Positions 8,734-64,000 are shown, counted from the first letter of the stretch. The stretch: DNA of 64,000 nt from Dehalococcoidia bacterium (GCA_011170285.1 DUEE01000023.1:7283-71282), one strand, 5' to 3'. Program-made: numbers and translations. The notes: generated from the letters alone by a model not told the origin.

Positions 8734-10782
<2,049 letters not shown>

Positions 10783-39710: not shown

Positions 39711-40499
39711 ATGAAGATTGCTGTCACTGGTAAAGGCGGAGTAGGGAAGACCTTATTAACGGCTCTCCTTGCTAAGGTATTTTCTGAAGCTGGCTATTCT
39801 GTTCTAGCTATAGATGCTGACCCCGATGCCAATCTAGCTGCCACCCTTGGTTTTCCCGACAGTGACAAGATGGTCCCTATATCTGAGATGAGCGCTCTTA
39901 TTGAAGAAAGGACAGGAGCACGCCCGGGTCAAATTGCACCCTACTATAGGCTGAACCCCAAAGTTGATGACTTACCAGAGAAGTATTCTATAATATACGA
40001 TGGAATTCGGTTAATGGCAATGGGGCGAATTAAACGAGGTGGAACTGGTTGTTATTGCCCTGAGGGTGCTTTGCTACAAGCTTTGCTTATCCATTTGCTG
40101 GTAGTAAGGGATGAGGTGGTTATTTTAGATATGGAAGCCGGGATAGAACATTTGGCACGAGGAACAGCAAAGGCGGTAGATAAACTGATTGTAGTAGTGG
40201 AACCAGGCAGACGGAGCATTGAAACAGCCTACAGGATTGATGAACTGGCACAGGATATTGGTCTACTGAATGTCGCCGTGGTAGCCAACAAGGTCAGAAA
40301 CCAATCAGACAGGAAATTCCTGCTTTCTAACCTTCCCGACTTCAAAATTCTTGGCTTTATCCCCTATGACCAAGCAATAGTGGAAGCTGACCTGGCTAAT
40401 CTTCCCTTGCTTGATTCCAGCCAGCAGATTATCAATGAAATAAGAAATATTTATCAGGCTTTGCTATCACCGGCTAAAGTACAAAGCCTGATAAATTAG
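39711..40499 (+). CDS. cooC: CooC/AcsF-type Ni-insertion ATPase (paralogue 1)
   Basis: 262 aa with a deviant Walker A GKGGVGKT, DADPDANL and the metal motif CYCPEG. Confidence 0.88.
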   Translation: MKIAVTGKGGVGKTLLTALLAKVFSEAGYSVLAIDADPDANLAATLGFPDSDKMVPISEMSALIEERTGARPGQIAPYYRLNPKVDDLPEKYSIIYDGIRLMAMGRIKRGGTGCYCPEGALLQALLIHLLVVRDEVVILDMEAGIEHLARGTAKAVDKLIVVVEPGRRSIETAYRIDELAQDIGLLNVAVVANKVRNQSDRKFLLSNLPDFKILGFIPYDQAIVEADLANLPLLDSSQQIINEIRNIYQALLSPAKVQSLIN

Positions 40500-40565
40500 T
40501 AAGAAGCATAACTGCATTTTAATAGGCATCAATTATCAGCAAAATTTTAATAAAGGAGGTTTTCT

Positions 40566-42329
40566 GTGGCTTACGATGCAGTAAAAATGAAGGATTGGCA
40601 GATTGCAGAAGCGGCTGAAGTCAACATGCCAACCCCAGACGAGTGGAGGGAGAGACTAAACCTGGAAAAGGATGAGATGATTCCTTTCGGGAAACTATGC
40701 CGGCTTGATTTCACGAAAATCATTGACCGCCTCAAGGACAAGCCGGATGGTAAGTATATTGAGGTAACTGCTATAACCCCGACGCCGCTGGGTGAGGGGA
40801 AAACAACAACGACAATGGGTATTTTGGAAGGCATGGGCAAGCGTGGATTGAATGTAGGCGGCTGTATCCGCCAGCCCTCAGGTGGTCCGACAATGAATAT
40901 CAAGGGAACGGCTGCCGGTGGTGGCAATGCGCTGCTTATTCCCATGACCGAATTCTCTATGGGTCTTACCGGGGACATCAACGACATCATGAATGCCCAT
41001 AATCTAGCCATGGTGGCGCTTACGTCTAGAATGCAGCATGAGCGCAATTACGATGACGAACAACTGGCTAGACTCACCAAGATGCGCCGCCTGGACATCG
41101 ACCCCACTAGGGTGGAGATGGGCTGGATTATGGATTTTTGCGCTCAAAGCCTGCGCAATATCGTCATCGGTCTCGGTGGGCGTATGGATGGCTTCGCCAT
41201 GCAGTCCAAGTTCGGCATCGCCGTCGGTTCTGAGCTTATGGCTATCCTATCCATTGTCAAGGATTTAGCTGACCTGCGGGAAAAACTAGATAATATAACG
41301 GTAGCCTTTGATAAGAAGGGCAATGTCATTACCACTGGTGACCTTGAGGTAGGAGGCGCCATGACCGCCTGGATGCGCAACACAATTAACCCCACCCTGA
41401 TGTCAACAGTGGAGTACCAGCCTTGCATGGTTCATGCCGGACCCTTTGCCAATATTGCTGTAGGGCAGTCATCAATAACAGCCGACCGTGTCGGGCTGAA
41501 GCTGTTTGACTATCATGTTACCGAGAGCGGCTTCGGTGCCGACATCGGCTTTGAGAAATTCTGGAATGTTAAGTGCCGCTATAGTGGGCTCAAGCCGCAT
41601 GTGTCAGTACTTACCACCACCATCCGGGCACTGAAGATGCATGGCGGAGGACCTAAAGTAGTAGCCGGTCTGCCCCTGCCTGACTCTTACGCTAAAGAGG
41701 ACCTGGGACTGCTGGAGAAGGGTATCTCTAACATGATACATCACATCAACATCATCAAGACATCTGGTATCAAACCGGTGGTTTGTATCAACAGCTTTCA
41801 CACCGATACCAAGGATGAAATAGCTATGGTGAGAAAGGCAGCCGAGGCAGCCGGGGCGTTTTGCGCCTTGTCCAGCCACTGGGCTAACGGCGGCGACGGT
41901 GCCCTAGAACTAGCTGATACGGTCAAGGAAGCCTGTAAAGTTGAGAATGAGTTCAATTTCCTTTATCCTGTGGAAATGAAACTACGGGAGCGGGTGGAAA
42001 AGATTGCCAAAGTGGTCTATGGTGCTAATGGTGTATCCTGGACCCCTGATGCCGAAGCCAAGGCCAAGAAACTTGAGTCCGATGCTAAATATGATGATTA
42101 CGCCACCATGATGGTAAAGACTCATCTAAGCCTCACCCACGACCCGGCAGTTAAAGGCGTCCCCAAGGATTGGGCTCTACCCATCCGCGATGTATTGATT
42201 TACTCCGGGGCGAAATTCCTCTGTCCTTGCGCCGGGGCTATCAGCCTGATGCCAGGAACCTCATCTAACCCTGCCTTTAGACGGGTCGATGTTGATGTAA
42301 ACACGGGAAAGGTTACAGGGCTGTTTTAG
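40566..42329 (+). CDS. fhs: formate-tetrahydrofolate ligase
   Basis: 587 aa with a GTG start after AGGAGG. It contains [13 protein letters not shown] and the EFSMGLTGD region. Confidence 0.96.
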
Positions 42330-42343
42330 CGGAGGAAAACTGC

Positions 42344-43093
42344 TTGAGCTTTAATATTGCTGTAGCTGGAAAGGGTGGTACTGGGAAAACATCTGTAGCT
42401 AGTCTCGTCATTCGCTACCTGAAAAAGAATAGCTCGGGACCAATTCTGGCAATTGATGCTGACCCCAATGCCAATCTAGGGGAGAGCCTGGGACTTAGTG
42501 TTAATAAGACGATTGGCTTGATGCTCGATGAATTCCAAAAGGACAAGATAAATATACCTTCTGGAATGACCAAGGAGACTTATCTGCAGTATAAACTAAA
42601 CGAGATTATCGTGGAAGGTAAAGACATTGACCTGATAACGATGGGGAGGGGTGAGGGTCCAGAGTGCTACTGTTACCCTAATCTTATCCTGAGGAAATTC
42701 GCCGATTCCCTGGCTGAAAACTATGCCTATACGGTTATGGACAATGAGGCTGGGATGGAGCATCTGAACCGAAGAACCACTCAGAATATTGACCTGCTTC
42801 TTATAATCTCCGACCATTCAGTGAAGGGGGTACGAACTGTTGCTCGAATAAGAGACCTGGTCGCCGAGCTAAAACTGGTGGTGAAAAAGCAATCGGTGAT
42901 AATCAATTTCGCCCCGACCAATCTGGACCCTCTCGTTGTTGACGCACTAGATAGGCTGGGAATTGAGCCTACAGCTATAATTCCTGAAGACAGGGAGGTA
43001 TATGAGTATGATCTCAAGCTAAAGCCACTGCTTGACCTACCTGATACCTCACAAGCAGTGAAGGTAATTAGTGATTTGATGGCTAATTTGTAA
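42344..43093 (+). CDS. cooC: CooC/AcsF-type Ni-insertion ATPase (paralogue 2)
   Basis: 249 aa with a TTG start, GKGGTGKTS, DADPNANL and CYCYPN. Confidence 0.85.
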   Translation: MSFNIAVAGKGGTGKTSVASLVIRYLKKNSSGPILAIDADPNANLGESLGLSVNKTIGLMLDEFQKDKINIPSGMTKETYLQYKLNEIIVEGKDIDLITMGRGEGPECYCYPNLILRKFADSLAENYAYTVMDNEAGMEHLNRRTTQNIDLLLIISDHSVKGVRTVARIRDLVAELKLVVKKQSVIINFAPTNLDPLVVDALDRLGIEPTAIIPEDREVYEYDLKLKPLLDLPDTSQAVKVISDLMANL

Positions 43094-43136
43094 AGGATTA
43101 GCTTATTGTGTCATAATATTAAAAAAGGAGGCGAAA

Positions 43137-44024
43137 ATGCCAGCACAAATTATTAGCGGAACCGAGATTGCTAAACAGATTCGCCAGGAGCTAAAGCAGG
43201 AAATTACTGAGCTCAAAGATAAGCACAATCTCATACCAGGACTAGTCACTGTCTTGGTGGGCGAGGACCCGGCGTCCCAAGTTTATGTGGGGTCAAAGGT
43301 GAAAACATGTGATGCTTTGGGTGTCTATTCAGAAAGATATGACCTGCCGGCTGAGACCAGTCAGGAAGAACTACTCACCCTGATTGACAAGCTAAATAAA
43401 GACCGAAAGATTCATGGTATTTTAGTCCAGCTACCCCTGCCCAAGCATATCAATGAAACTGAAGTTCTTTATGCCATTGACCCTAAAAAGGATGTTGATG
43501 GCTTTCATCCAGTGAATGTAGGCAAACTAATGATAGGCGAGCCTGACTATTTACCCTGCACTCCTCACGGGATACAGCAGCTTCTAATCCGGTCCGGGGT
43601 TAAGATTGAAGGGGCAGAGGTAGTAGTCGTCGGCAGGAGTAATATCGTGGGCAAACCTATAGCCAATATCCTTATCCAGAAGAAAGAGGGAGCCAATGCC
43701 ACGGTGACTATATGCCACACCCGAACTAAGGATATGGCTTTCCATACCAAGAGGGCTGATATACTAATTGTAGCTGCAGGAAAACCCAAGGCTATTACTG
43801 CCGATATGGTTAAAGAGGGAGTAGTGGTGATTGATGTTGGTGTTAATCGAATAGGAAAGACCCCAGAAGGTAAGGCTATACTGTGCGGAGATGTTGACTT
43901 TGATACAGTTAAGGAGAAGGCTAAAGCCATTAGTCCGGTTCCTGGCGGGGTTGGACCGATGACTATAACTATGCTTATGTTAAACACCGTAAAAGCAGCA
44001 AAAGTATCTGCTGGTCTAGCCTAG
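43137..44024 (+). CDS. folD: bifunctional methylene-THF dehydrogenase/methenyl-THF cyclohydrolase
   Basis: 295 aa with GEDPASQVYV, ILVQLPLP, GRSNIVGKP and PGGVGPMT. Confidence 0.96.
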   Translation: MPAQIISGTEIAKQIRQELKQEITELKDKHNLIPGLVTVLVGEDPASQVYVGSKVKTCDALGVYSERYDLPAETSQEELLTLIDKLNKDRKIHGILVQLPLPKHINETEVLYAIDPKKDVDGFHPVNVGKLMIGEPDYLPCTPHGIQQLLIRSGVKIEGAEVVVVGRSNIVGKPIANILIQKKEGANATVTICHTRTKDMAFHTKRADILIVAAGKPKAITADMVKEGVVVIDVGVNRIGKTPEGKAILCGDVDFDTVKEKAKAISPVPGGVGPMTITMLMLNTVKAAKVSAGLA

Positions 44025-44036
44025 GGAGTGAACAAA

Positions 44037-44258
44037 ATGATGGAATATAAAATTGAAAAAAAGAGTGCACCCAGTGGGGAAGATATAGAAGTGCTGGGAG
44101 CAACCTTTGAGGAGGGTAAACCCGAGGGTGAGGAACCTGGAAAATGGAGACAAAAGCTAGGCGGCAGGAAAGAGAAGCTCAAATATTTGCAAACTGCCGA
44201 GAGATATTGGTATGGAGAAGATTGGTATGGTAGTGAGAAAAGGAGGAACCCAGCTTAG
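44037..44258 (+). CDS. hypothetical small charged protein (about 73 aa)
   Basis: AGGGAG lies 8 nt upstream of the ATG at 44037. Sequence MMEYKIEKKSAPSGEDIEVLGATFEEGKPEGEEPGKWRQKLGG...YWYGEDWYG. I recognise no family, so coding status is uncertain. Confidence 0.35.
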   Translation: MMEYKIEKKSAPSGEDIEVLGATFEEGKPEGEEPGKWRQKLGGRKEKLKYLQTAERYWYGEDWYGSEKRRNPA

Positions 44259-44284
44259 ATAAAGAAGTAAAAAATATCGTTTAA

Positions 44285-44322
44285 AATTCCTAGCTTTGCA
44301 GCTAGGAATTGTTGCTTTTGTT
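44285..44322 (+). terminator. intrinsic terminator/attenuator inside the Wood-Ljungdahl cluster
   Basis: Perfect 11-bp stem AATTCCTAGCT / AGCTAGGAATT, loop TTGC, followed by GTTGCTTTTGTT. Confidence 0.6.
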
Positions 44323-44330
44323 ATGTAAAA

Positions 44331-45302
44331 TTGATAGTGGAGAGGGAGGAAAAATTGGAATTGGAAATTCCAAAGACATTATACAGCGGCAAAATCAAAG
44401 AGATAAAACTGGGTAAGGGGGATAAAGCAGTAACTATTGGCGGAGAGAGCGCTTATCCCTTCTACCTTTTTGAAGGCGAGATGCCAAATCTACCTAAGAT
44501 AGCCATGGAGGTCTGGGACTGTGCCCCTGAGGAGTGGGCTGAAGCCGCTTTAGAGCCTTTTGACGGTGTAACTGATGACCCTGTTGCCTGGGCAAAGAAA
44601 TGTATTAAAGATTATGGAGCAGAGATGATCGCCCTACAACTAATAAGCACCGACCCCAATGGACTTAATCGAGCAGCCGATGAAGCCGCCGAGGTGGTCA
44701 AAAGGGTAGCCGAGGCTATTGATGTTCCCTTAATCGTTTGGGGAACAGCTAATCATGACAAAGATACTGAGGTTCTAAAAAAAGTCTGTGAGAATTGCCA
44801 GGAGAAGAAGCTGATTATCGGACCAGTTGAGGAAGGAGACCACAAAAAGATTGGTGCCGCCGCACTTGCTTATCACCATACAGTGATTTCGTCAACGCCT
44901 ATAGACATAAACCTGGCTAAACAACTAAATATTCTGTTGGGCAATCTTGGTATCCCTGATGAGCTGATTGTGATGGATCCTACCGTCAGCAGCATAGGCT
45001 ATGGTATTGAGTATTGCTACTCAGTAATGGAGAGGGATAGGATGGCAGCATTAACCCAGCAGGATGAAAAGCTCCAGTTCCCTATTATTTGCAATCTGGC
45101 TAAAGAGGTATGGAAGACCAAGGAAGTGCATATTTTAATGGAGGAAGACCCCAAGCTTGGAGACGCCAAGAAGAGGGGTATTTTAATGGAGGCTATGACA
45201 GCTATGGTACTGCTCCTAGGCGGGGCTGATATACTAATCATGAGACACCCTAAAGCAATAGAATTGGCTCGAGAGATGATAACTGAATTAACAGCTTCCT
45301 AG
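44331..45302 (+). CDS. acsD: corrinoid iron-sulfur protein small subunit (AcsD/CdhD)
   Basis: 323 aa from the TTG at 44331. The TTG at 44355, after GGAGAGGGAGG, is an alternative start. It contains YSGKIKEIKLG...VTIGGESAYPFY, the delta-subunit TIM-barrel pattern. Confidence 0.85.
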   Translation: MIVEREEKLELEIPKTLYSGKIKEIKLGKGDKAVTIGGESAYPFYLFEGEMPNLPKIAMEVWDCAPEEWAEAALEPFDGVTDDPVAWAKKCIKDYGAEMIALQLISTDPNGLNRAADEAAEVVKRVAEAIDVPLIVWGTANHDKDTEVLKKVCENCQEKKLIIGPVEEGDHKKIGAAALAYHHTVISSTPIDINLAKQLNILLGNLGIPDELIVMDPTVSSIGYGIEYCYSVMERDRMAALTQQDEKLQFPIICNLAKEVWKTKEVHILMEEDPKLGDAKKRGILMEAMTAMVLLLGGADILIMRHPKAIELAREMITELTAS

Positions 45303-45329
45303 AATAAACATGGAAGGGGTGATAGTAAG

Positions 45330-47297
45330 ATGGAAGAAGCAGAAACCAAGAGTATTGATAAAGCTAGTATTAAGATGATAGATAAAGCGGCCAATGATGG
45401 GGTTAACACCGTCTTTGATAGGGCTGAAGCAATGAAACCCTGCCCCATAGGGATGGTTGGCAGTTGCTGTAAGCACTGCGGGATGGGACCTTGCCGCGTG
45501 CCCCTACCCAAAGGAAAAGTGGAAACCCCAGAGGAGAAACAAAAGAGGAGAGGCATATGCGGGGCAACTAGTGAGACCATCGCCGCTCGTAATTTTATAC
45601 GGATGGTGGCCGGTGGAGCAGCGGCTCACTCTGACCATGGTCGGGGGGTAGCTGAAGTCTTCCTAGCAGTAGCTAAAGGTGAGGCTCCAGGCTACGAGAT
45701 TATAGACGAGCAGAAATTACTGCAACTGGCTCTGGACTGGGGTATTGAAATCAGTGAGCGCAGCAACCAGGAAATAGCCGTTGATATTGGTGCAAAGGCT
45801 TTGAATGAATTTGGCAAGCAGGAGGGCGAGATTTTGTTCCTACGAAGGGCACCGCTGAAACGCCAAGAATTATGGCGGCGGGAGGGGGTTGCCCCTAGGG
45901 GTATAGATAGAGAAATTGTAGAGATAATGCACCGCACCCATATTGGGGTTGACCAGGACTACCAAAATCTGCTTCGCCAGGGAGTCAGGGCATCTATAGC
46001 TGATGGCTGGGGTGGTAGCATGATTGCTACCGAACTACAAGACATCCTTTTTGGTACTCCAGAACCGGTGCTAGGCAGGATAAACCTAGGGGTGCTTAAT
46101 CGGGACGAGGTAAACCTTATCATTCACGGTCACGAGCCACTACTTTCTGAGATGATTGTAGTTACTGCTCAAGAACCTGAGATGGTAGAGCTGGCTAAAT
46201 CTAAGGGGGCTAAAGGAATAAACATAGCTGGTATGTGTTGCACCGCCAATGAAATATTAATGCGCCACGGCATCCCTATAGCTGGGAACTTCCTGCAACA
46301 GGAGCTAGCTATAGTTACCGGGGCAGTGGATGCTATGATAGTAGATGTTCAGTGTATTATGCAATCCTTAACCACTGTAGCTGAGTGTTACCATACTAAG
46401 ATTATCACCACCTCACCCAAGGCTAAGATTCCCGGTGCTACCCATATTGAGTTTGATGAGCACAATGCTATGGAGTCGGCTAGAGCTATAGTCAAGATGG
46501 CTATTAATAATTTCCCCAATAGAGGAAGTAATGTTGATATCCCTGAAGAGCAGACTGACCTCATCGCTGGATTCAGCCATGAGACCATTAACTACCTACT
46601 GGGCGGTCTGTTCCGGGCTTCCTACCGACCATTAAATGATAATATCATCAATGGTAGGATTAGAGGGGTAGCTGGTGTCGTCGGCTGCAATAATGCCCGA
46701 GTTAAACACAACTACGCTCACATTACCATGATTAAGGAACTTATCAAGAATGATGTATTGGTGCTTCAAACTGGTTGTAGTGCCATAGCCTCTGCTGAAG
46801 CTGGGCTAATGACTCCCGAGGCAGCATCAAAATATGCTGGTGAGGGGCTGGCTTCAGTGTGCGAAACAGTCGGTATTCCGCCAGTATTACACATGGGTTC
46901 CTGTGTTGATAACAGCCGAATCTTAATGGCAGCGACCGCCATGGTAAAGGATGGTGGCTTGGGTGATGACATCAGTGACCTGCCTGTAGCCGGGGCTGCC
47001 CCTGAATGGATGAGCGAGAAGGCAATTTCTATTGGTCAATACTTTGTTGGATCAGGAGTATTTACCGTGTTTGGCGTCAACTGGCCTACCCTAGGCAGTA
47101 ACGAAGTAAGTAAATTTTTATTCCAGGATTTTGAAGCTATGTATGGTGGAATGTGGGCATTTGAACCTGACCCGCTTAAAGCCGCCAACCTTATGATTGA
47201 ACACATCGACCAGAAGCGTAAGGCCTTAGGTATTGATAAGGCTAGAGAGAGAATACTCTACGATATGACAATGAGAAGAGAGCTGGAAGCAGTGTAA
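45330..47297 (+). CDS. acsA: anaerobic carbon-monoxide dehydrogenase catalytic subunit
   Basis: 655 aa with N-terminal cluster cysteines CPIGMVGSCCKHCGMGPCRV and downstream GHEP, GMCCTANE and GSCVDN motifs. Confidence 0.93.
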   Translation: MEEAETKSIDKASIKMIDKAANDGVNTVFDRAEAMKPCPIGMVGSCCKHCGMGPCRVPLPKGKVETPEEKQKRRGICGATSETIAARNFIRMVAGGAAAHSDHGRGVAEVFLAVAKGEAPGYEIIDEQKLLQLALDWGIEISERSNQEIAVDIGAKALNEFGKQEGEILFLRRAPLKRQELWRREGVAPRGIDREIVEIMHRTHIGVDQDYQNLLRQGVRASIADGWGGSMIATELQDILFGTPEPVLGRINLGVLNRDEVNLIIHGHEPLLSEMIVVTAQEPEMVELAKSKGAKGINIAGMCCTANEILMRHGIPIAGNFLQQELAIVTGAVDAMIVDVQCIMQSLTTVAECYHTKIITTSPKAKIPGATHIEFDEHNAMESARAIVKMAINNFPNRGSNVDIPEEQTDLIAGFSHETINYLLGGLFRASYRPLNDNIINGRIRGVAGVVGCNNARVKHNYAHITMIKELIKNDVLVLQTGCSAIASAEAGLMTPEAASKYAGEGLASVCETVGIPPVLHMGSCVDNSRILMAATAMVKDGGLGDDISDLPVAGAAPEWMSEKAISIGQYFVGSGVFTVFGVNWPTLGSNEVSKFLFQDFEAMYGGMWAFEPDPLKAANLMIEHIDQKRKALGIDKARERILYDMTMRRELEAV

Positions 47298-47333
47298 TTA
47301 CCAAGATAATAAAAAGAAAACGAGGATTGAAAT

Positions 47334-49541
47334 ATGTCTAAAATTATTGCATCAGCAGCTATCAGAGGGGCTGATAAAATTGTAAACCGAGCTGAGGAGA
47401 AGTGGCAGCAGGCAATGGATAGGTGGGGAATGAATGAACAGGTGGGCTTTCCTAACACTGCCTATTATCTACCAGTAATTTATGGGATTTTAGGTATTAA
47501 GGTGGAAAAGCTAGGTGATATGGAACAGATACTAAAAAAGTGTAAATCCCTGCTACCTCCTCCAGTAAGGGGACAATGCCCTTTGCCCTATCTAGCACCA
47601 GCCCTTGATGCCGGAATGGCAACCTTCTTTGCCGATGAGATTATTGAAGCCATAAGATACCTAGAGGAACCTGATTTCTATAATAAGCAGGAAGACCCTA
47701 CTGATACTAACATCTGGTTAGGTGCCGCCGATGATGTAATCCTCAGAAAGAGGGGGATTGAATTCGTTGATGGCACTGCTCCAGGCTTTGCTGCTGTCCT
47801 GGGTGCGGTCCCAACTAATGAAATAGCTGTCAAAATTGCCAACGAACTTCAGCAGAAGAACCTATATGTCTTTATGTGCGCCGAGTATAACGGGAAGAGG
47901 TTCTCTGAGCAGCTTGTGGAGGCAGGAGTACAGATTGGGTGGTCAGTTAGGTTGGTACCCTTTGGTCCTGATGTTACCGCCGCTGTATTTGCCGCTGGCT
48001 TTGCCACCAGGGCAGCTCTTTCCTTCGGCGGCATTGAGCCTGGCGATTTCAGAAAAATCCTTATCTACAATAAAGATCGTATCTTCGCTTTCGCTCTACC
48101 TCTGGGTTTTGTTACCGATGAGTGGTACGCCCAGGCGTTGGGCTGTGTCAACTATGGCTTTCCCATTATCGCCGATACTCCGATACCTGAGATTTTGCCT
48201 ACCGGGGTGTGTACCTACGAGCATGTTGTCTCCAATATTCCCTACGATAAGATAGTGTCTAAGGCAGTAGAGGTAAGAGGAGTGAAGATTATTGTGGCTG
48301 AGGTGCCGATCCCAGTAGCCTTCGGCCCCGCCTTTGAGGGTGAGAGGGTTCGGAAGGGGGAATGGTATCTGGAGTGTGGCGGCGGCAGAACACCTATGGT
48401 TGAGTGGGTTACCAGCAAGCGGATGGAAGAGATAGAGGATGGGAAGATTGAAGTGCTCGGTCCTGAGATAGCTGATATCCCTGATGAGTCCCGTTTACCT
48501 TTAGCTATAGTTGTTGAGGTTGCCGGTAGAGAGATGGAGGAAGACTACGAACCTATCTTGGAACGACAGGTTCACCATTCTATAAACTACGCCCAAGGGA
48601 TATGGCATATAGGTCAGAGGGATATTGCCTGGCTTAGAATCACTAAATCGGCGAAGGAAAAAGGGTTCAGGCTATATCATATTGGCACTCTTCTCCATGC
48701 CAAACTGCATCAGGACTTTGGTCGGATATTTGATAAGATGCAGGTAAAACTCTACACCGAGGAGGACAAGGTAAAGGAGATAATAGAACGAGCCAAGGCA
48801 ACTTATGCGCTCCGAGATGCCCGCATCGAAGGGATGACCGATGAAAGTACTGATACATATTACTCATGCACCCTATGTCAGTCATTTGCCCCCAACCATG
48901 TATGTGTCATTACGCCAGAAAAAACTGGGCTTTGTGGTTCCTATAACTGGATGGACTGTAAGGCTGCTTACGAGATTAATCCTACCGGACCTAATCAACC
49001 GGTGCCCAAGGGGGAAACCATTGATGCCAAGCTTGGACAATGGAAAGGGGTAAATGAGTTTATTTATAAGGCTTCTCGTGGAAACCTAGACCACTATAAC
49101 ATGTATAGCATAGTATATGATCCGTGGACTACCTGCGGCTGCTGCGAGTGTGTTGCCGCTGTCCTTCCTCTGTGCAATGGGGTGATGACGGTTAATCGGG
49201 AGTATAATGGGGAAACCCCTTGCGGGATGAAGTTCACCACTCTCGCCGGCACTATCGGTGGCGGAGTTAGCACTCCCGGCTTTGTTGGTCACGGCAAGTA
49301 TAATACCTGCCAGAGGAAATTCCTTATAGCTGACGGTGGCTTATTAAGAATGGTCTGGATGCCCAAGATGCTGAAGGAGGAGATTGCTGAGCGGCTTAAA
49401 GCCAGGTCTGAGGAGCTAGGTGTCCCTGACCTACTTGATATGATTGCTGACGAGACGATAGGCACCACCGAAGAGGAGATTCTACCCTTCTTGCAAGAGA
49501 AAGGGCACCCAGCACTTACTATGGACCCCATACTAGGCTAA
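47334..49541 (+). CDS. acsB: acetyl-CoA synthase (CO-methylating), ACS alpha subunit
   Basis: 735 aa with the A-cluster region CTLCQSFAPNHVCVITPE...GLCG and WTTCGCCECV. Confidence 0.95.
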   Translation: MSKIIASAAIRGADKIVNRAEEKWQQAMDRWGMNEQVGFPNTAYYLPVIYGILGIKVEKLGDMEQILKKCKSLLPPPVRGQCPLPYLAPALDAGMATFFADEIIEAIRYLEEPDFYNKQEDPTDTNIWLGAADDVILRKRGIEFVDGTAPGFAAVLGAVPTNEIAVKIANELQQKNLYVFMCAEYNGKRFSEQLVEAGVQIGWSVRLVPFGPDVTAAVFAAGFATRAALSFGGIEPGDFRKILIYNKDRIFAFALPLGFVTDEWYAQALGCVNYGFPIIADTPIPEILPTGVCTYEHVVSNIPYDKIVSKAVEVRGVKIIVAEVPIPVAFGPAFEGERVRKGEWYLECGGGRTPMVEWVTSKRMEEIEDGKIEVLGPEIADIPDESRLPLAIVVEVAGREMEEDYEPILERQVHHSINYAQGIWHIGQRDIAWLRITKSAKEKGFRLYHIGTLLHAKLHQDFGRIFDKMQVKLYTEEDKVKEIIERAKATYALRDARIEGMTDESTDTYYSCTLCQSFAPNHVCVITPEKTGLCGSYNWMDCKAAYEINPTGPNQPVPKGETIDAKLGQWKGVNEFIYKASRGNLDHYNMYSIVYDPWTTCGCCECVAAVLPLCNGVMTVNREYNGETPCGMKFTTLAGTIGGGVSTPGFVGHGKYNTCQRKFLIADGGLLRMVWMPKMLKEEIAERLKARSEELGVPDLLDMIADETIGTTEEEILPFLQEKGHPALTMDPILG

Positions 49542-49556
49542 GAAAGGAGTTTAACG

Positions 49557-50903
49557 GTGCCCCTTACAGGAATAGAGATATTCAAGTTACTCCCCAAGAC
49601 GAACTGTAAGGAATGCGGAGAGCCTACTTGTCTCGCTTTCGCTATGAAATTAGCTGCGGGTAAGGCAGAGTTAAATGCCTGTCCCTATGTCTCTGAGGAG
49701 GCAAAAGTTAAACTAGCCGAGGCATCGGCACCTCCTATTCTACCGGTTACTATCGGAGTCGGGGACAGGGCACTAAAGATTGGCAGCGAGACAGTTATGT
49801 TTCGCCACGAAAAAAGGTTTGAGAACCCTCCCGGCTTTGCCATCCTTATCACTGATACTATGGAGGAGGCCGAGGTCAATGCCAGATTGGAGAGGTTCAG
49901 CCAACTCCAATATAAGAGGGTTGGACTCACTCTCCGTCCGGAACTGGTAGCAGCAAAGGATGAATCGGGAGATGCCAGTAAATTTGAGGCTTTAGTTAAT
50001 AAAGTAAAGCAAAATAGTAGCAGCGGCATTATCCTGATGAGCAGTAATCCAGATATTCTGGCTGCTGGTTTAAAGGCTTGCGCTGATTGGAAACCACTAA
50101 TATACGCCGCTACTGAAGATAATATGGCTAGGGTAGTCGATTTAGCTAAGGAGCATTCGTGCCCGGTAGCAGCCAAAGCCTCAAGCTTGGAGAAACTCGC
50201 CCAACTGACTGCTAAATTGACCGAGGCGGGGGCTAAAGATATCATTCTTGATTCCGGGGCAAGGACTGTTCGCCGCGCATTTGAGGAACAGTTAATCATC
50301 AGAAACGCCGCCTTAAATAAAAAGTTTCGCCCCCTGGGTTTTCCTACCATCGTTTTTCCCTGCGAGATGACTGGTGACCCGATGAAGGAGGCGGTAATTG
50401 CCTCTATGTTTGTGGCTAAATATGGGGGTATTATCGTTCTTTCTGATTTTCAGGGAGAAAGCCTGTTCCCCCTGCTCGTAGAAAGGATGAACATCTATAC
50501 TGATCCCCAACGACCACTGGCGACCACAGAGGGCATATATGAGATTGGCAGTCCTGATGAAAAGTCACCGGTGCTTATTACCACCAACTTTTCGCTTACC
50601 TACTTTATTGTCTCCGGCGAAATAGAAACGAGCAAGGTTCACAGTTACCTCCTGGTAAAAGACACCGAAGGTCTTTCGGTTATGACCGCCTGGGCAGCAG
50701 GGAAATTTGTGTCTGATACTATTGCCCCTTTTGTTAAGAAATGTGGTATTGGAGATAAGGTTAAACACCGTAAGTTAATAATCCCGGGATATGCTGCCGC
50801 TGAAAGTGGCGGTTTGGAAGAAGAATTATCCGGCTGGGAGATTCTAATTGGTCCCAGAAATGCGGCTCATATCCCAGCCTACCTCAAGACATGGAAGCCA
50901 TAA
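49557..50903 (+). CDS. acsC: corrinoid iron-sulfur protein large subunit (AcsC/CdhE)
   Basis: 448 aa with a GTG start after AAGGAG and the N-terminal 4Fe-4S motif CKECGEPTCLAFAMKLA...C. Confidence 0.93.
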   Translation: MPLTGIEIFKLLPKTNCKECGEPTCLAFAMKLAAGKAELNACPYVSEEAKVKLAEASAPPILPVTIGVGDRALKIGSETVMFRHEKRFENPPGFAILITDTMEEAEVNARLERFSQLQYKRVGLTLRPELVAAKDESGDASKFEALVNKVKQNSSSGIILMSSNPDILAAGLKACADWKPLIYAATEDNMARVVDLAKEHSCPVAAKASSLEKLAQLTAKLTEAGAKDIILDSGARTVRRAFEEQLIIRNAALNKKFRPLGFPTIVFPCEMTGDPMKEAVIASMFVAKYGGIIVLSDFQGESLFPLLVERMNIYTDPQRPLATTEGIYEIGSPDEKSPVLITTNFSLTYFIVSGEIETSKVHSYLLVKDTEGLSVMTAWAAGKFVSDTIAPFVKKCGIGDKVKHRKLIIPGYAAAESGGLEEELSGWEILIGPRNAAHIPAYLKTWKP

Positions 50904-50914
50904 GGAGAGGGAAG

Positions 50915-51790
50915 ATGATCCTTATCGGGGAAAATATAAATATTATGTCAAATATTATTGGCCCTGCACTGAGGGAGAGAAACCCCAAACCTATTCAGGA
51001 ACTAGCCAAGGCTGAGACTAAGACTGGGGTGAATTATCTCAACCTCAGTATTGGTCCGGCGCGCAAGGCAGGGGATGAGTTGATGGAATGGGTGGTAAAG
51101 ACAGTGCAAGAGGTTACCAATTTGCCCCTATCCCTGGATACGACAAATCCAGTAGCTATGGAAGCTGGACTAAGGGTGCGCCAAGGCAGGGCATTGATTA
51201 ATTCTATCTCCCTAACCAGGATGGAGGAGGAACTTCCTCTGGTCAAGAAATATAACGCTGACATGGTTGGGCTGCTGTGGGGAAGAGAGGGAATGCCTCG
51301 GGATGCCGCTGAGAGAGGGGTTATAGCCGTTGAGCTTGCCTATAGAGCCAATGAAATGGGTATTCCTAATGAGGGCATCTGGTTCGACCCTATAGTAACC
51401 CCGGTGGTTAATGTGGATACAAACCAGGTGAAACCCTGCCTAGAATTTATGAATATGCTGCAAGATATTGCCCCCGGGTGCAAATCTACCGTGGGCTTAT
51501 CTAATATATCCAATGGCACTCCTACCCACCTCCGACCCTATCTTAACCAGACTTATTTGATGATACTTATGAAGTATGGACTTTATTCAGCTATAGTTGA
51601 TGCCTTTGACTCTGAACTGATAAAGATAGCCAAAGGCGAGAAGCCTGAACTTGTTGACCTGGTTAATCGGGTAATGGATGGTGAGAAACCTGACCTCTCG
51701 TCTCTAACCGAGGAAGAGGTAAGATATGTGAAAACGGTCAGGGTTCTGACTGGGGAATCACTCTACTCCCACTCCTGGCTTGAGATATAG
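50915..51790 (+). CDS. acsE: methyltetrahydrofolate:corrinoid/Fe-S protein methyltransferase
   Basis: The start is re-set to ATG at 50915 after AAGGAGAGGG (MILIGENINI...). Pterin-binding TIM-barrel pattern with LSLDTTN and GLSNIS.G. Confidence 0.9.
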   Translation: MILIGENINIMSNIIGPALRERNPKPIQELAKAETKTGVNYLNLSIGPARKAGDELMEWVVKTVQEVTNLPLSLDTTNPVAMEAGLRVRQGRALINSISLTRMEEELPLVKKYNADMVGLLWGREGMPRDAAERGVIAVELAYRANEMGIPNEGIWFDPIVTPVVNVDTNQVKPCLEFMNMLQDIAPGCKSTVGLSNISNGTPTHLRPYLNQTYLMILMKYGLYSAIVDAFDSELIKIAKGEKPELVDLVNRVMDGEKPDLSSLTEEEVRYVKTVRVLTGESLYSHSWLEI

Positions 51791-51827
51791 TGTCAACCGG
51801 CTAAATAAAGTTTACGGTGACCACTGA

Positions 51828-52490
51828 ATGGAAAGCAGACATTTGTCATTACCAAAGCAGCGAAATTATGAATATGGTTATCAGCATGCTTATAAGCTTG
51901 CTTGTGACCAACTAACCAAGATTGGTGCTATAGACCAGTTATGCCTCAGAAGCGGTACCCAATACCAGGTAATAGATTCCCAGAAGATAATGTTACTAAA
52001 ATATCTAAATCAAACCTACCAAATTACTCTTTCTAATATGGACATTTCATTCACAGATAGCAAACAGGAAGTACCGATAAGCGACAAGATATTAATGCTC
52101 CACTATTTGACCTCAGCCAAAGGCACCCCTATCAGCAATAAATTGATTGCCTATAAAGAATTGCCAGAAGGGGCTAATTATTTTCCAACATTCGCCAAGA
52201 GAGCAATAAAGCCACTTTTAGACCACTTTGGCAAAGAGCCTCATCTCCTGTTGGATGTTGCCCATAAGCTTGGAGGGGATAAAGCTGAGTATGGCGATGT
52301 AGCGGTAACCATCAATGCTTTTACCTATGTACCTATAACCCTTGTCATGTGGCGAGGTGATGAGGAGTTTGCTCCTGAGGGTAGCATCCTTTTTGATAGC
52401 ACTATCTCTGACTATTTGTCTGCTTATGATATAAATGTGCTTTGTGAAACCATAGCCTGGAGATTGGTCAAGTTTTCAAAAGGAGCCTAA
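51828..52490 (+). CDS. DUF3786 domain protein
   Basis: 220 aa, the last gene of the acs cluster. The pattern (KELPEGANYFPTF...FDSTISDYLSAYDI) matches my recollection of DUF3786. Confidence 0.6.
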   Translation: MESRHLSLPKQRNYEYGYQHAYKLACDQLTKIGAIDQLCLRSGTQYQVIDSQKIMLLKYLNQTYQITLSNMDISFTDSKQEVPISDKILMLHYLTSAKGTPISNKLIAYKELPEGANYFPTFAKRAIKPLLDHFGKEPHLLLDVAHKLGGDKAEYGDVAVTINAFTYVPITLVMWRGDEEFAPEGSILFDSTISDYLSAYDINVLCETIAWRLVKFSKGA

Positions 52491-60443: not shown

Positions 60444-60528
60444 TGGTGCCGAGGGTGGGACTCGAACCCACAAGGATTGCTCCGGCGGATTTTAAGTCCG
60501 CTGCGTCTGCCTATTCCGCCACCCCGGC
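60444..60528 (-). tRNA. tRNA-Leu (anticodon TAA), type II with long variable arm, CCA encoded
   Basis: Minus strand: GCCGGGGTGGCGGAATAGG...GGACTTAAAATCC...GGGTTCGAGTCCCACCCTCGGCACCA. The 7-bp acceptor stem has one G-U pair. T-arm is GTGGG/CCCAC. Confidence 0.9.
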
Positions 60529-60536
60529 AAAAGCAG

Positions 60537-60599
60537 TGGAGGCGACAAGCTGATTCGAACCGCTGAATACGGTTTTGCAGGCCACAGTAGGTCGTCACC
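60537..60599 (-). pseudogene. truncated tRNA-Cys(GCA)-like element lacking a D-arm
   Basis: The 63-nt minus-strand sequence is GGTGACGACCTACTGTGGCCTGCAAAACCGTATTCAGCGGTTCGAATCAGCTTGTCGCCTCCA. The 3' part, about 45 nt from the anticodon loop CTGCAAA to CCA, looks tRNA-like. Only 7 nt stand where the D-arm should be. The T stem has a G-A mismatch and the anticodon stem has a C-A mismatch. Confidence 0.45.
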
Positions 60600-60659
60600 C
60601 CTAGTGTTTTGTTTCACATAGCCTTGTTATATATTTGATGCAGAATATCCCTGTGAGTT

Positions 60660-60689
60660 ATTATACCATCTGGTGATACCCCACGTCAC
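60660..60689 (-). promoter_or_regulatory. putative extended -10 promoter upstream of the tRNA pair
   Basis: Read on the minus strand: TGgTATAAT (60668-60660), with GTGACG/TGACGT 17-18 nt upstream. It lies about 60 nt upstream of the tRNA-Cys-like 5' end. Confidence 0.45.
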
Positions 60690-61194
60690 CCAATCCGTTA
60701 GCAAAAATAGGTGCTCTTTCTCACCTGTCATAGGCTGCCAGCGGTGAGACTGAAAGCGGGTAATACCTCCTAGTTCATTCGGGGTAGTGGATAACCTGTT
60801 TGCTCGTCTAAAAGGTTAGGATTGCCGCCGACACTCCTATCCATATCAGCCAGCATCTCCCCAAGCTGGAGCGTAAGCCCTAGAACCAAATTTTAGCCCC
60901 CCTTCCCGGGGCTTCTGAATGAGGCGGCGGGATACCTTTATGTTTAGAGAGGCGGCATTCCTCTGAGGGAGGAGGTTGATAAACGACTGGCTAACTGTTA
61001 GGCTGAGGGACTAGTAAACACTGGTATTTGGAGACTTCTATTATTATTCAGTAGAGTCGACTATATAGTACACAGAAGATGGGATAGGCCGACAGACCTC
61101 TATCAAATATTGAAGTTGGCGTGAAATTAAGAGAAGTAAATAAGAAACGACCATAGTCTTTAATGAACCTTAAGCTTTAACCTTGTCAATTTTC

Positions 61195-61224
61195 TTGACA
61201 GCGTCTCATAGCAGTTATTATAAT
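61195..61224 (+). promoter_or_regulatory. sigma-70 promoter of the rpoN-like gene, probably giving a near-leaderless mRNA
   Basis: TTGACA (61195-61200), 18-nt spacer, TATAAT (61219-61224). The first ATG (61235) is 10 nt after the -10 element, and no SD sequence precedes 61235 or 61250. Confidence 0.5.
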
Positions 61225-61234
61225 ATTTATACAA

Positions 61235-62347
61235 ATGACAGGCTTACTTATGGAACAAACGCAACATATGCAGATGCGGCAGGAACTAAGACAATTCCTC
61301 CGAATGGAACAGGCTAACCTGCTGGAGATGCCTGAGGAAGAGTTTAATCGGCTCATCACTGAGATAGAGCAGAGTCCCCTTTTCAGAAGGCTTTACCGGA
61401 AGGAAGAGCTAATCCGCTACCAGAGATTTCCTAGAACTGACATTTCCTCTAGCTTCTATCAACTAAAGGAAGAGATGGTAGCTGATAGAAGTTCTCCTGA
61501 TATTGAATCCCTTATATTAAATAAGGAGCATATCATTCATCAAATACAGAAGCTGGGGCTGGAGAAATTCAAACGGTATTTCTTATTCCCTGAATCAGGG
61601 ATGGCCCCTGAAGAAATCGCCAGAGAGTGTGACTTGGAGGTCTCGGAGGTTCAGAAGATAAATAACCTTATTGATGAAGTCTCTATTATGAGTGAGTTTT
61701 ATCATCCCTCCAATGTCACCTCAGGCGGCATTCACTACTCCAAGGTCGCCTCAGTGGAGGAGGGCGAGAAGGGTTTTGTTATTGGCTACTATTCGGCTTC
61801 TTTCGCCCGGGGTCAGTATTCGATTGATTATGAGAGGTTTGAAGAGTTAAAGGTGGCTGGTGTCCTCACCGAAGCTGAGGTCAAGGAAGCTAGGCAGTTA
61901 TTCAAGAGGCTGGAACTAATTAATAGCCGCAAGGACACGCTAAGTCAAATACTGCAAAATATTATTGACAAGCAGGCACTCTATCTAGACTCTGGTGATT
62001 TGAAGACTCTTTTACCCTTCAGTCAAAAGGAGCTAGCCGAAAAGATTGGACTTGCTCCCAGCTCGGTCAGTCGCGCTATTAGTGGTAAAAGTATAGACAC
62101 CCCTTCGGGTCAAGAAGTCCCCCTTAAACACTTCTTCCCCAGACCAAAGAGATTTAGGCAGGAACTGCTCAGGCAGCTTCTTGAAACTGATAAGGAGCTT
62201 TCCTCAGACGAGGCAATCCGGAACAAGCTCTGGGAGAAATTTGGCGTAGCCATCTCCCGACGCTCGGTAGCCAACCTGAGGAAAGAACTTAAAATTCCGG
62301 CAGCTCAGGGAAAACGACGTTCTGTCCGGGGTAAGGAGACAAGATGA
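61235..62347 (+). CDS. rpoN: RNA polymerase sigma-54 factor, compact form
   Basis: 370 aa. Region I-like N-terminus MQMRQELRQFLRMEQANLLEM...EIEQSPLF. The C-terminal HTH is QKELAEKIGLAPSSVSRAISGKSIDTPSG..PLKHFF. The RpoN box-like sequence is VAISRRSVANLRKELKIP. Confidence 0.75.
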   Translation: MTGLLMEQTQHMQMRQELRQFLRMEQANLLEMPEEEFNRLITEIEQSPLFRRLYRKEELIRYQRFPRTDISSSFYQLKEEMVADRSSPDIESLILNKEHIIHQIQKLGLEKFKRYFLFPESGMAPEEIARECDLEVSEVQKINNLIDEVSIMSEFYHPSNVTSGGIHYSKVASVEEGEKGFVIGYYSASFARGQYSIDYERFEELKVAGVLTEAEVKEARQLFKRLELINSRKDTLSQILQNIIDKQALYLDSGDLKTLLPFSQKELAEKIGLAPSSVSRAISGKSIDTPSGQEVPLKHFFPRPKRFRQELLRQLLETDKELSSDEAIRNKLWEKFGVAISRRSVANLRKELKIPAAQGKRRSVRGKETR

Positions 62348-64000
62348 GTATTGTTTACACTGAGAGAGAAAAGTGTAAAGGCTGCTATGCCTGTATCCGT
62401 AACTGCCCTGCCCAGGCAATCAGGGGTAGAGAGGGCTTGGCTGAGGTAATAAAGGAACGCTGTATTGACTGCGGAACCTGTGTTCAGCTCTGCATGGCTA
62501 AGGCAAATCAGGCAGAGAGCGACATAGGTGTAGTCTGGCAGCTATTGGGACAGCGTCAACCCATAATTGCTATGCTTTCCGCCCCATTTCCTGCCGCTTT
62601 TCCTCAAATTAAGCCGGGACAGCTAGTAACCTCCCTCAAGAAGCTGGGGTTTAGTGAAGTTATGGAGGACTCCTTCGGTGCCGAGCTAGTCTGCCGCGAG
62701 TATGCTCACCTCCTACGCGAAAATAAAGGTAAACCAATCCTCTCATCTACCTGTCCAGTTATAGTATCCTACATTGAGAAATATTATCCCCAGCTAATTG
62801 ACAACCTAGCCCCTATCGTCTCGCCTATGATAGCCATGGCTAGAGTGATTAAGCAGCGGTATAATCCACAGGCCAAGGTAGTCTTCATTGGTTCTTGTAT
62901 AGCCAAGAAAGCTGAAGCTAAAGATGAGAAGGTTACCGGGATAGTCGACGCTGTTCTGACCTTTGCTGAGATGAAGGAGATGTTCGCGACTAGAGGGATT
63001 ACTCCTGAGACTGAGGAGGAGGGGCAATCGTCGGGTCCCAAGCCCAATCTGGGCCGCCTTTTTGCCATATCGGGGGGATTGCTGAAAGTAGCGGGACTCT
63101 CAGATGACATGCTGACAAATGAAATTATCAATGCCTGTGGCCGGGAATATACGCCCAATATCCTTCATGAATTTGCCGAAGGCAATATTACGGCTAGGCT
63201 CATCAGCCTATGTTTCTGCGAGGGCTGTATTGACGGGCCAGTTATTGATAATAACCTAAGCATTTTTAAGCGAAGGGAAATAATCAGCAATTATACCATT
63301 AGCCAGTCAGACCCGGCTCAAACTGAGCAGGACATTCAGCAGTATGCCGGTATTGACCTTAGCCGGAAATTTACCAATCGAGGTGTCGTCCTGCCTATGC
63401 CAAGTGAGGAAGATGTTCAAGGAGTTTTAGAGAAGATTGGTAGAGTGGACCCCGGCTACCGGATGAACTGTGGTGCCTGCGGCTATAGCGGCTGCCGAGA
63501 ACTGGCAATAGCCGTCTGCCAAGGTCTGGCTGAGACTGAGATGTGCTGGCCATACGTACTTAAGACGTTAAGGACTACCCAAGAAGAGCTAATTCAGGCA
63601 GAGAAGCTGACCTCCCTAGGTCAACTGGCAGCATCTATAGCTCATGAGGTAAATAATCCCCTGGCTGGTGTGTTAATTTATACCCAATTATTGGCAAAGA
63701 AAATAGCTGGAGACGGTCTTCCCAAAGAAAAAACCTTGGACTATTTGTCAAAAATGGAATCGGAGCTTCAGCGCAGCACCGGGTTGATTCGAAACCTTCT
63801 TAACTTTGCCCGAGAATCACCACCAACCTTTAGGGAGGTGAACCTTAATGATGTCGTTAACCGAGCCCTCGACCTGACTGCCCATTCGGCTGAGCTACAG
63901 CGCGTCCAGGTGATAAAAGAGCTTACCCCTTCCCCACCTAATTTAACGGCCGATTTTGACCAGCTTCAGCAGGTTAGCACCAATCTCATTATGAATGCCA
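62344..64000 (+). CDS. [FeFe]-hydrogenase-like Fe-S sensor domain fused to a histidine kinase (3' end outside window)
   Basis: Missing from the ORF track because it has no stop in the window. The ATG at 62344 overlaps the rpoN stop (ATGA). My translation gives MSIVYTEREKCKGCYACIRNCPAQAI...CIDCGTCVQLC (2x4Fe-4S). Hydrogenase large-subunit-like motifs follow: SSTCPV, GSCIAKKAE and LCFCEGCIDGP. Next come a CGACGYSGC Fe-S domain and an H-box LGQLAASIAHEVNNPL. Confidence 0.85.
   Translation, partial: MSIVYTEREKCKGCYACIRNCPAQAIRGREGLAEVIKERCIDCGTCVQLCMAKANQAESDIGVVWQLLGQRQPIIAMLSAPFPAAFPQIKPGQLVTSLKKLGFSEVMEDSFGAELVCREYAHLLRENKGKPILSSTCPVIVSYIEKYYPQLIDNLAPIVSPMIAMARVIKQRYNPQAKVVFIGSCIAKKAEAKDEKVTGIVDAVLTFAEMKEMFATRGITPETEEEGQSSGPKPNLGRLFAISGGLLKVAGLSDDMLTNEIINACGREYTPNILHEFAEGNITARLISLCFCEGCIDGPVIDNNLSIFKRREIISNYTISQSDPAQTEQDIQQYAGIDLSRKFTNRGVVLPMPSEEDVQGVLEKIGRVDPGYRMNCGACGYSGCRELAIAVCQGLAETEMCWPYVLKTLRTTQEELIQAEKLTSLGQLAASIAHEVNNPLAGVLIYTQLLAKKIAGDGLPKEKTLDYLSKMESELQRSTGLIRNLLNFARESPPTFREVNLNDVVNRALDLTAHSAELQRVQVIKELTPSPPNLTADFDQLQQVSTNLIMNA

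Follow-up and report, generated by a model that had tools for sequence, protein, structure and literature searches.

The 64-kb stretch of a Dehalococcoidia bacterium genome analyzed here (GCA_011170285.1, DUEE01000023.1:7283-71282; hereafter the window, positions 1-64000 of the whole stretch) ends with the beginning of what is probably a self-contained sigma-54 regulatory cassette of the Dehalococcoidia chromosome, with a histidine kinase of the HydS type as the input and a downstream -24/-12 promoter as the output. The part within the window consists of a sigma-70-type promoter, the gene for a compact protein of the sigma-54 family (ORF1) and most of the gene for a hydrogenase-like sensor kinase (ORF2). 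The remaining parts, namely the rest of the kinase gene, an activator gene, the -24/-12 promoter and the gene for a receiver-domain protein that we denote REC1, were read from L001, a 77-kb Joint Genome Institute (JGI) metagenome contig that is identical to the window and extends past its end. Positions on L001 and on the other loci mentioned below are separate from the window coordinates.

61195-61224, + strand: sigma-70-type promoter, TTGACA-18-TATAAT, matching the consensus at 12 of 12 positions
61235-62347, + strand: compact sigma-54-family gene (ORF1), 370 amino acids (aa), identified with Pfam Sigma54_DBD
62021-62083, + strand: helix-turn-helix for the -12 element, residues 263-283, SQKELAEKIGLAPSSVSRAIS, aligned to the sigma-54 helix-turn-helix of Protein Data Bank (PDB) chains
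62252-62290, + strand: RpoN box for the -24 element, residues 340-352, ISRRSVANLRKEL, aligned to ARRTVAKYR of Klebsiella sigma-54
62344-64000, + strand: sensor histidine kinase gene with a HydS-like sensor (ORF2), 552 of its 648 codons inside the window, identified by Pfam domains
62353-62505, + strand: two ferredoxin-type [4Fe-4S] motifs CxxCxxCxxxCP, C11/14/17/21 and C40/43/46/50, Pfam Fer4 families
62566-63240, + strand: [FeFe]-hydrogenase H-domain, Fe_hyd_lg_C (PF02906), 1e-48
63463-63549, + strand: C-terminal Fe-S domain (PF04060), C376-x2-C379-x4-C384-x16-C401, kept across the family
63616-63816, + strand: HisKA dimerization and phospho-acceptor domain with the H-box SIAHEVNNPL, Pfam, 49.6 bits
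L001 14381-14432 and 14505-14556: tandem units of hairpin, T-run and -24/-12 element, about 2.4 kb past the window end

The cassette promoter ends 10 nucleotides upstream of the ORF1 ATG, with no Shine-Dalgarno sequence in between, so that the predicted leader of the cassette mRNA is only about 3-5 nucleotides long, that is, near-leaderless. This layout (TTGACA, 17-18 nucleotides, TA(A/T)AAT, ~10 nucleotides, ATG) is retained in roughly 24 of 38 related loci, in agreement with an earlier note on this DNA which had proposed a near-leaderless message from a consensus promoter; four loci possess a Shine-Dalgarno sequence instead, each with another gene preceding. Because residue 6 is not Met in many of the near-leaderless loci, M1 was taken as the start codon of ORF1; the public gene call begins at Met24 and yields a 347-aa product. 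The two genes overlap by ATGA (ORF2 ATG at 62344-62346, ORF1 TGA at 62345-62347, context caagATGAgt), the arrangement described earlier as translational coupling to a long ORF, and ORF2 was absent from the ORF track solely because it runs past the window end.

The presence of the sigma-54 helix-turn-helix and RpoN box in the 370-aa protein, already recognized in the earlier note, is borne out by profile and structure-based comparisons. Sigma54_DBD (PF04552) aligns with residues 214-362 of ORF1 at 80.2 bits (cutoff 22.8) and is the only sigma-specific Pfam family above its curated cutoff, with weaker generic helix-turn-helix families overlapping the same region; all 63 family members match it. 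In the helix-turn-helix, which contains the sequence SQKELAEKIGLAPSSVSRAI, S276, S277, S279 and R280 are invariant in the homolog alignment, and in the RpoN box, R342, R343, V345 and R349 are invariant in the 23 close homologs, with R343 and R349 nearly invariant across the broad family. Both elements align residue by residue with solved PDB sigma-54 (E = 5e-12). From the N-terminus, the protein comprises a region I-like segment (residues 1-56), a shortened, divergent core-binding region (about residues 57-160) with region II absent, a beta-hairpin (165-197), a long helix plus helix-turn-helix (199-300) and the RpoN domain (304-352). The N-terminus (LQMRQELRQILRMEQANLLEM) is strongly conserved, Gln/Leu-rich and region I-like, and it lines up with Klebsiella sigma-54 region I without gaps, although at -0.7 bits this alignment is non-significant on its own, and there is no match to PF00309. 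Compared with canonical sigma-54 (477 aa in E. coli and Klebsiella RpoN, 398 aa in Aquifex aeolicus), ORF1 shares the long helix, the helix-turn-helix and the RpoN box, and differs in its length, in the lack of region II, in a core-binding region about one-third to one-half shorter and in the invisibility of the latter and of region I to PF04963 and PF00309, respectively. The gene context also differs, with an activator and a kinase in place of the lptB, hpf and ptsN genes of canonical rpoN. On the evidence of sequence and structural modeling, ORF1 appears to be a divergent, compact sigma-54 that would bind core RNA polymerase, and it adjoins the genes for its cognate activator and the cognate -24/-12 promoter.

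The full-length kinase is a 648-aa protein (L001 11041-12987) in which all the sensory modules proposed earlier were found; each sequence feature that the earlier note listed was located at the position given there. The eight ferredoxin cysteines are kept in 27-28 of 28 kinase family members. In the H-domain, the cysteines are C137 in SSTCP, C185 in GSCIAKKAE and C292/C295 in FCEGC; on alignment with solved [FeFe]-hydrogenases, SSTCP falls on TSCCP, GSCIAKKAE on MPCxxKxxE and FCEGC on CxxGC with a one-residue deletion. Cysteine thus occupies all four H-cluster ligand positions (C300, C355, C499 and C503 in CpI numbering), again in 27-28 of 28 members, and the equivalents of Lys358 and Glu361 (AKKAE) are kept across the 28 kinases, whereas the proton-relay Cys299 is lost (mostly Thr or Asn, occasionally other residues), Gly stands in place of Met353, and Met497 varies. 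The same Cx2Cx4Cx16C motif, loss of Cys299 and traits at Met353 and Met497 have been published for the HydS proteins of groups C and D (PMC8163306). Like the putative sensory [FeFe]-hydrogenases TmHydS (group C, M2f), TamHydS (group D, M2e) and those of HydDB group C1, the cassette kinase combines two N-terminal [4Fe-4S] motifs, the H-domain and Cx2Cx4Cx16C with a lost Cys299 and Gly in place of Met353. Unlike group C HydS (M2f), it has no PAS match: HisKA starts 23 residues past the Fe-S domain and is followed by HATPase_c (105.8 bits), which lies outside the window on L001. The third H-cluster motif is FCxGC (Cx2C), unlike the CxxxC of TmHydS and TamHydS.

The partner NtrC-type activator that had been expected beyond the window is encoded immediately downstream on L001, by a 453-codon gene that begins 17 nucleotides before the kinase stop; the two genes are similarly close or overlapping in most loci. 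The activator consists of REC, Sigma54_activat (248 bits), an AAA lid and a Fis-type helix-turn-helix (HTH_8), and its sigma-54-contacting loop is GSFTGA. In the 253-bp spacer 3' of this gene, a hairpin with a T-run is followed by a -24/-12 element twice, with TGGCATGGAAATTGCG at position 14418 and TGGCAAGACAATTGCA at position 14541, the latter 26 nucleotides upstream of the REC1 ATG. Such tandem copies of the unit were also observed in L020, L027, L031, L033 and L035. A conserved promoter of this type, TGGCA-N6-TTGC[A/G/C] (usually TTTTGGCAAGAAAATTGCA, with A the usual last base), is found in 33 loci ahead of REC1 or of a receiver gene much like it, and its spacer AGAAAA is kept far beyond what the shared consensus demands. 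The hairpin stems vary between loci with compensating changes (GGCTATC/GATAGCC versus GCTACCC/GGGTAGC) and are followed by a T-run, which we take to mean that the hairpin terminates the three-gene operon directly next to the -24 element. The promoter type, the dependence on an AAA+ activator and the GAFTGA-type loop, here deduced from sequence, are those of canonical sigma-54 systems.

A weight matrix built from the REC1-upstream sites was used to scan 610 kb on both strands at a threshold of 12 bits. Nearly all matches of at least 12 bits are located in REC1-upstream regions (the training sites and tandem copies), with one other weak match, and none falls in the 64-kb window. The looser scan of the window for TGGCAC-N5-TTGC, the motif for which the earlier note had suggested a genome scan, proved uninformative, with 63 matches at up to 2 mismatches versus 55 expected; the best of these, at 37020-37034 on the - strand, was rejected as it lies antisense within a ribonucleotide-reductase gene.

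REC1 is a 358-aa protein with a receiver domain, a weak TPR-like stretch and a Cys-rich C-terminal domain with two Cx5-6Cx2C motifs, for which no Pfam or NCBIfam family match was obtained. Homologs of REC1 are confined to Dehalococcoidia/Chloroflexota; many ~205-aa Dehalococcoidia proteins (P0393-P0463) share its TPR-like stretch and Cys-rich domain and lack the receiver, and the search returned no full-length REC1 orthologs. On L001, REC1 is followed by a shorter relative, REC2, and by a flavoprotein similar to CoA-disulfide reductase and NADH oxidase. In two other loci, the sigma-54 promoter is followed by fusions of a receiver domain with redox modules, namely REC with a GltD-like flavoprotein and 4Fe-4S motifs (L028 3002-5242) and REC with 2Fe-2S/4Fe-4S modules resembling the N-terminus of NuoG and HydA (L018 7480-8499), which hints that phosphorylation may act directly on electron-transfer complexes.

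A scan of one genome per species identified 39 loci, nearly all labeled as Dehalococcoidales or Dehalococcoidia bins, in which the sigma factor is 50-83% identical to ORF1. The order sigma-54, kinase, activator, REC1, traced by tblastn with the L001 proteins, holds in almost every sufficiently long locus, and the pairing of sigma factor and kinase recurs in about 30 species-level Dehalococcoidia bins, so that it is not unique to one assembly, which was a concern raised at the outset. The hydrogenase-like sensor is the commonest input of the cassette.

These findings suggest the following circuit. The sigma-70-type promoter would transcribe sigma-54, the soluble kinase and the NtrC-type AAA+ activator as a nearly leaderless mRNA. 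Kinase activity would depend on the redox state or the ligand of the H-domain and the three accessory [4Fe-4S] clusters, H2 being the most likely ligand, and the kinase would phosphorylate the receiver domain of the activator. The activator would then use ATP to open the closed complex of RNA polymerase and the cassette sigma-54 at the -24/-12 promoter located directly after the operon terminator, which would drive REC1, probably a second-tier output or feedback element. Because REC1 has a receiver domain of its own, it might be phosphorylated by the same kinase, yielding a feed-forward output, or else serve as a phosphoryl drain, yielding negative feedback. The sequences show the order of the genes, their domains, the conserved ligand cysteines, the conserved promoter and terminator and the retention of all these in many genomes; the signal and its effect on the kinase, the partners in phosphotransfer, the role of this sigma-54 mainly in its own cassette and the physiological effect of REC1 are deduced.

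Several observations weigh against parts of this scheme and are considered here together with the alternatives that they favor. The alternative that fares best, although we regard it as somewhat unlikely, leaves the circuit intact and holds that the kinase does not sense H2: the H-domain would carry Fe-S clusters only, as in proteins of the Nar1/IOP type, or its H-cluster would serve as a sensor of O2, CO or redox poise, and the cassette would report cellular redox or oxidant stress. In favor of this possibility, the last pair of H-cluster cysteines is spaced Cx2C where the canonical spacing is Cx3C; in these contig-level data, neither the surroundings of the locus nor the annotated portion of the window (~12.5-64 kb) showed a hydE, hydF or hydG maturase gene; the L001 operon that follows the promoter ends with the CoA-disulfide-reductase/NADH-oxidase-like flavoprotein; and group C1 proteins of Hydrogenedentota have been reported to lack recognizable H-cluster motifs (PMC11406978). 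Furthermore, in 6 loci the hydrogenase-like kinase is replaced by a ~415-aa membrane kinase with a near-identical transmitter, so that the cassette can do without the hydrogenase-like sensor; both kinases are present in 3 loci, and one locus has no kinase gene between the sigma and activator genes. Against this alternative, the four cysteine ligand positions and the Lys358 and Glu361 equivalents are conserved throughout the kinase family as described above, and the architecture is that of HydS enzymes, which bind an H-cluster (PMC8163306). The neighborhood also argues for hydrogen metabolism: 3' of REC1, we identified an HdrBC-like CCG protein in 6 loci, HdrA2 in 2, MvhD in 3, NuoE/NuoF-like hydrogenase modules in 3 and HycI in 3 (L029, L031 and L034), in L034 as a convergently oriented HycI with a [NiFe]-hydrogenase cluster, which suggests that the module belongs, physiologically, to H2 and electron-bifurcation metabolism. 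Given the variable kinase position, the invariant core comprises sigma-54, the activator, the promoter and REC1. The proposal of a dedicated H2, CO or redox pathway hard-wired to sigma-54 therefore stands with respect to the partnership of sigma-54, activator and promoter; the kinase is replaceable, and the signal would be H2 only in so far as the sensor architecture and the neighboring genes are a guide.

Where the two kinases lie side by side (L005 9107-11065 and 11082-12338; L008 9107-11062 and 11089-12357; and L013), their transmitter-coding DNA, ~700 bp, is 98.7-98.9% identical in L005 and L008 and 88% identical in L013, far exceeding the similarity between species. This suggests gene conversion or recent duplication that matches both kinases to one activator, with an assembly artefact as the alternative explanation.

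The second alternative, which we consider unlikely, is that ORF1 is the general sigma-54 of the organism, serving many promoters and activators, and is found beside one two-component system by chance. Indeed, the promoter conforms to the standard -24/-12 consensus, rpoN is a single-copy gene serving several activators in most bacteria (PMC3162934), and the surveys for -24/-12 promoters and for rpoN covered contig-level sequence (610 kb) as opposed to whole genomes. However, the conservation of the AGAAAA spacer and the lack of a second strong site in the 610 kb of flanking sequence are at odds with a general role, and so is the gene context of distant relatives. An exhaustive profile search with a limit of E below 1e-30 detected 248 clusters (at 50% identity); among the 150 listed, the full-length entries are ~330-420 aa long, and most align end to end. 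Seven members with 31-45% identity to ORF1 were examined for gene context, one of which is followed by the same hydrogenase-like kinase. An activator gene adjoins the sigma gene in P0190, P0258 and P0204, twice downstream (NtrC-type or GAF-type) and once upstream, and lies two genes downstream in P0129, so that the activator is adjacent or two genes off in 4 of the 7 (31-40% identity), with different targets; in a fifth relative, P0145, the sigma gene adjoins a truncated ORF beginning with a receiver domain, and one of the seven is on a contig too short to judge. In the P0190 locus (L043), the activator is followed by the -24/-12 element TGGCAGTAATATTGC, and in the P0129 locus (L052), by a hairpin, a T-run and TGGCATACTATTTGCA; in both cases, the element precedes a different target operon, which encodes a ketoacyl synthase, two B12-binding radical SAM enzymes and a PEMT/ICMT-like methyltransferase. 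Thus, with activators and promoters of their own in distant relatives, the cassette layout is a property of the family and not of the window locus alone. The distant relatives with an adjacent activator of their own (33-40% identity) occupy L043 8001-16409, L052 7001-15125 and L051 14-2722.

A sigma-54 dedicated mainly to its own cassette would fit these contexts, and we tentatively propose that the compact family, with proteins of 350-390 aa, is a previously unrecognized branch of 'private' sigma-54 factors borne by portable cassettes, each perhaps with its own activator, often its own kinase and a terminator-insulated -24/-12 promoter downstream; we hold this extension to the family to be possible, with somewhat less than even confidence. 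Only one of the three Pfam domains is matched in this family, so it is likely to have been missed by surveys such as one that defines sigma-54 by all three (PMC12316311). If the proposal is true, the private sigma-54 cassette would resemble the modules of the extracytoplasmic function (ECF) sigma factors, except that its control would be enhancer-dependent and zero-leak. In the Dehalococcoidia version, the entire output route of a sensory [FeFe]-hydrogenase would then be genetically readable for the first time, and this version would also offer a ready-made orthogonal expression switch that responds to H2 or to redox state.

A further point against the scheme is that no binding site for the activator upstream of the -24/-12 promoter could be told apart from the conservation of the coding sequence. 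The remaining points concern the ability of ORF1 to bind core polymerase. The NCBIfam rpoN equivalog model TIGR02395 scores 88.2 bits, below its cutoff of 277.35, over residues 127-359, and the NCBIfam rpoN models cover only the C-terminal 150-230 residues, far under their cutoffs; there is no Pfam match to the core-binding (PF04963) or the activator-interacting (PF00309) domain in ORF1 or its 62 relatives. In the TIGR02395 alignment, the final helices of the core-binding domain are represented by residues 127-160, and the remainder of this domain is squeezed into about 70 residues. A profile-profile comparison (hhalign) with E. coli RpoN gave a probability of 98.5 over residues 175-361 only; the C-terminal half of the E. 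coli sequence used closely agrees with the PDB alignment. The AlphaFold model of ORF1, built from an alignment of 63 diverse sequences, has a pLDDT of 90.2 and a pTM of 0.76 (a model from the 23 close homologs only, with a pLDDT of 54, was discarded). In a Foldseek search of the PDB, sigma-54 chains make up all of the first 28 matches, and several of the alignments extend beyond 400 columns, up to 430, but the TM-scores to bound sigma-54 are only about 0.36, a low value that is expected for a free model compared with polymerase-bound chains but is no proof. Failure against sigma-54 hidden Markov models (HMMs), which the earlier note had named as a refutation, does not apply, since ORF1 passes the DNA-binding-domain model and has the structural matches, with the missed TIGR02395 cutoff as a qualification; nor do the other two refutations named there, an absence of -24/-12 promoters or activators and a pairing confined to this assembly. 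Still, it is very improbable that ORF1 is no sigma factor but a sigma-54-derived DNA-binding repressor, anti-activator or promoter-occupying factor that has lost core binding, as might be argued from the core-binding-domain HMM unmatched in 63 of 63 family members, from the limited span of the profile-profile alignment and from a fusion in L003 of a sigma-54 DNA-binding domain with GIY-YIG-like motifs, which shows the domain to be reusable, given that conservation is high in the region I-like N-terminus, the TIGR02395 alignment starts at residue 127 and so covers the last core-binding-domain helices, the Foldseek alignments to holoenzyme sigma-54 extend over up to 430 columns, no canonical rpoN was seen in any of the loci examined, and the activator retains the GSFTGA loop that contacts sigma-54 region I.

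The proposed cassette has a well-known counterpart in the regulatory [NiFe]-hydrogenase pathway of Cupriavidus necator, which consists of the HoxBC sensor, the HoxJ kinase, the NtrC-type activator HoxA and sigma-54 promoters. In both cases, a hydrogenase-type sensor would act through a histidine kinase and an NtrC-family activator on sigma-54-dependent transcription. Unlike in C. necator, sensor and kinase of the cassette make up a single polypeptide, the sensor being of the [FeFe] type; the operon includes the sigma-54 gene, and the immediate target is a receiver-domain protein, not hydrogenase structural genes. HydDB lists the regulatory [NiFe]-hydrogenase as group 2b, 'histidine kinase-linked', and a putative 'histidine kinase-linked' [FeFe] group, C1, with its role given as undetermined (PMC5037454). 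Hydrogenase-like proteins linked to histidine kinases thus already form a named, putative class; the cassette is not categorically new. The closest described operon of a sigma-54, a receiver and an activator is rpoN2-vemR-fleQ of Xanthomonas (PMC6637908, PMC12271599), in which, as proposed for the cassette, a receiver-domain regulator and an enhancer-binding activator share a transcript with the sigma-54 gene, and the sigma-54 copy is dedicated to one regulon. However, RpoN2 is a full-length paralog beside RpoN1 and controls flagellar genes, and the Xanthomonas operon lacks the kinase, the hydrogenase-like sensor and the promoter directly after the operon terminator that are present in the cassette. 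Literature searches retrieved no paper that combines Dehalococcoidia, sigma-54 and hydrogenase and no description of an operon of rpoN with a hydrogenase-like kinase, in accord with the novelty suggested earlier. The new elements are the compact sigma factor, its inclusion in one operon with a HydS-type kinase and an activator, the terminator-insulated promoter downstream, and the generality of the cassette across a large, unannotated family.

Characterized HydS enzymes are without an established signaling output, whereas the pathway from the cassette kinase, through activator, sigma-54 and promoter, is fully readable. Kinase, activator, sigma factor and target promoter are all conserved and together occupy about 5 kb, so that the output of a sensory [FeFe]-hydrogenase becomes open to direct test and the pathway could be rebuilt in vitro or in a heterologous host. 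The constant pairing of sigma factor and activator further suggests that a sigma-54 can work as a dedicated factor carried on a cassette. Dehalococcoidia are hard to culture and H2-dependent, and for these bacteria the cassette represents a candidate master switch beside hydrogenase and Hdr/Mvh genes.

Some additional observations pertain to L003. Divergent from its compact sigma-54 gene is a 449-aa ORF (L003 1056-2402, - strand) that contains a region similar to the sigma-54 DNA-binding domain (Pfam, 36 bits; 28-36% identical to the compact sigmas of the various loci and 32% identical to ORF1), has no region I and carries GIY-YIG-like motifs at its C-terminus (GIYELRL...YIGSGGNLRKRL). An intergenic region of the same locus (10200-10500) contains repeated palindromic elements, CCCCTCTCC...GGAGAGGGG; among the repeats, at 10303, is a -24/-12-like site, TGGCAATAAGGTTGCT, which is followed by no ORF and shares ATAGGGTGG with sequence downstream of the REC1 promoter.

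Upstream of the cassette promoter, the ~660 bp at 60529-61194 contain no notable ORF and no Rfam match, and are preceded by the following feature.

60447-60528, - strand: tRNA gene, the sole Rfam match in the window

Farther upstream, 9 kb from the cassette and separated from it by oppositely oriented housekeeping genes, is a Wood-Ljungdahl gene cluster (window 39711-52490) that encodes two CooC-like ATPases, formate-tetrahydrofolate ligase, FolD, a CdhD-like protein, carbon monoxide dehydrogenase (CODH), acetyl-CoA synthase, a corrinoid Fe-S protein, a pterin-binding methyltransferase and a DUF3786 protein.

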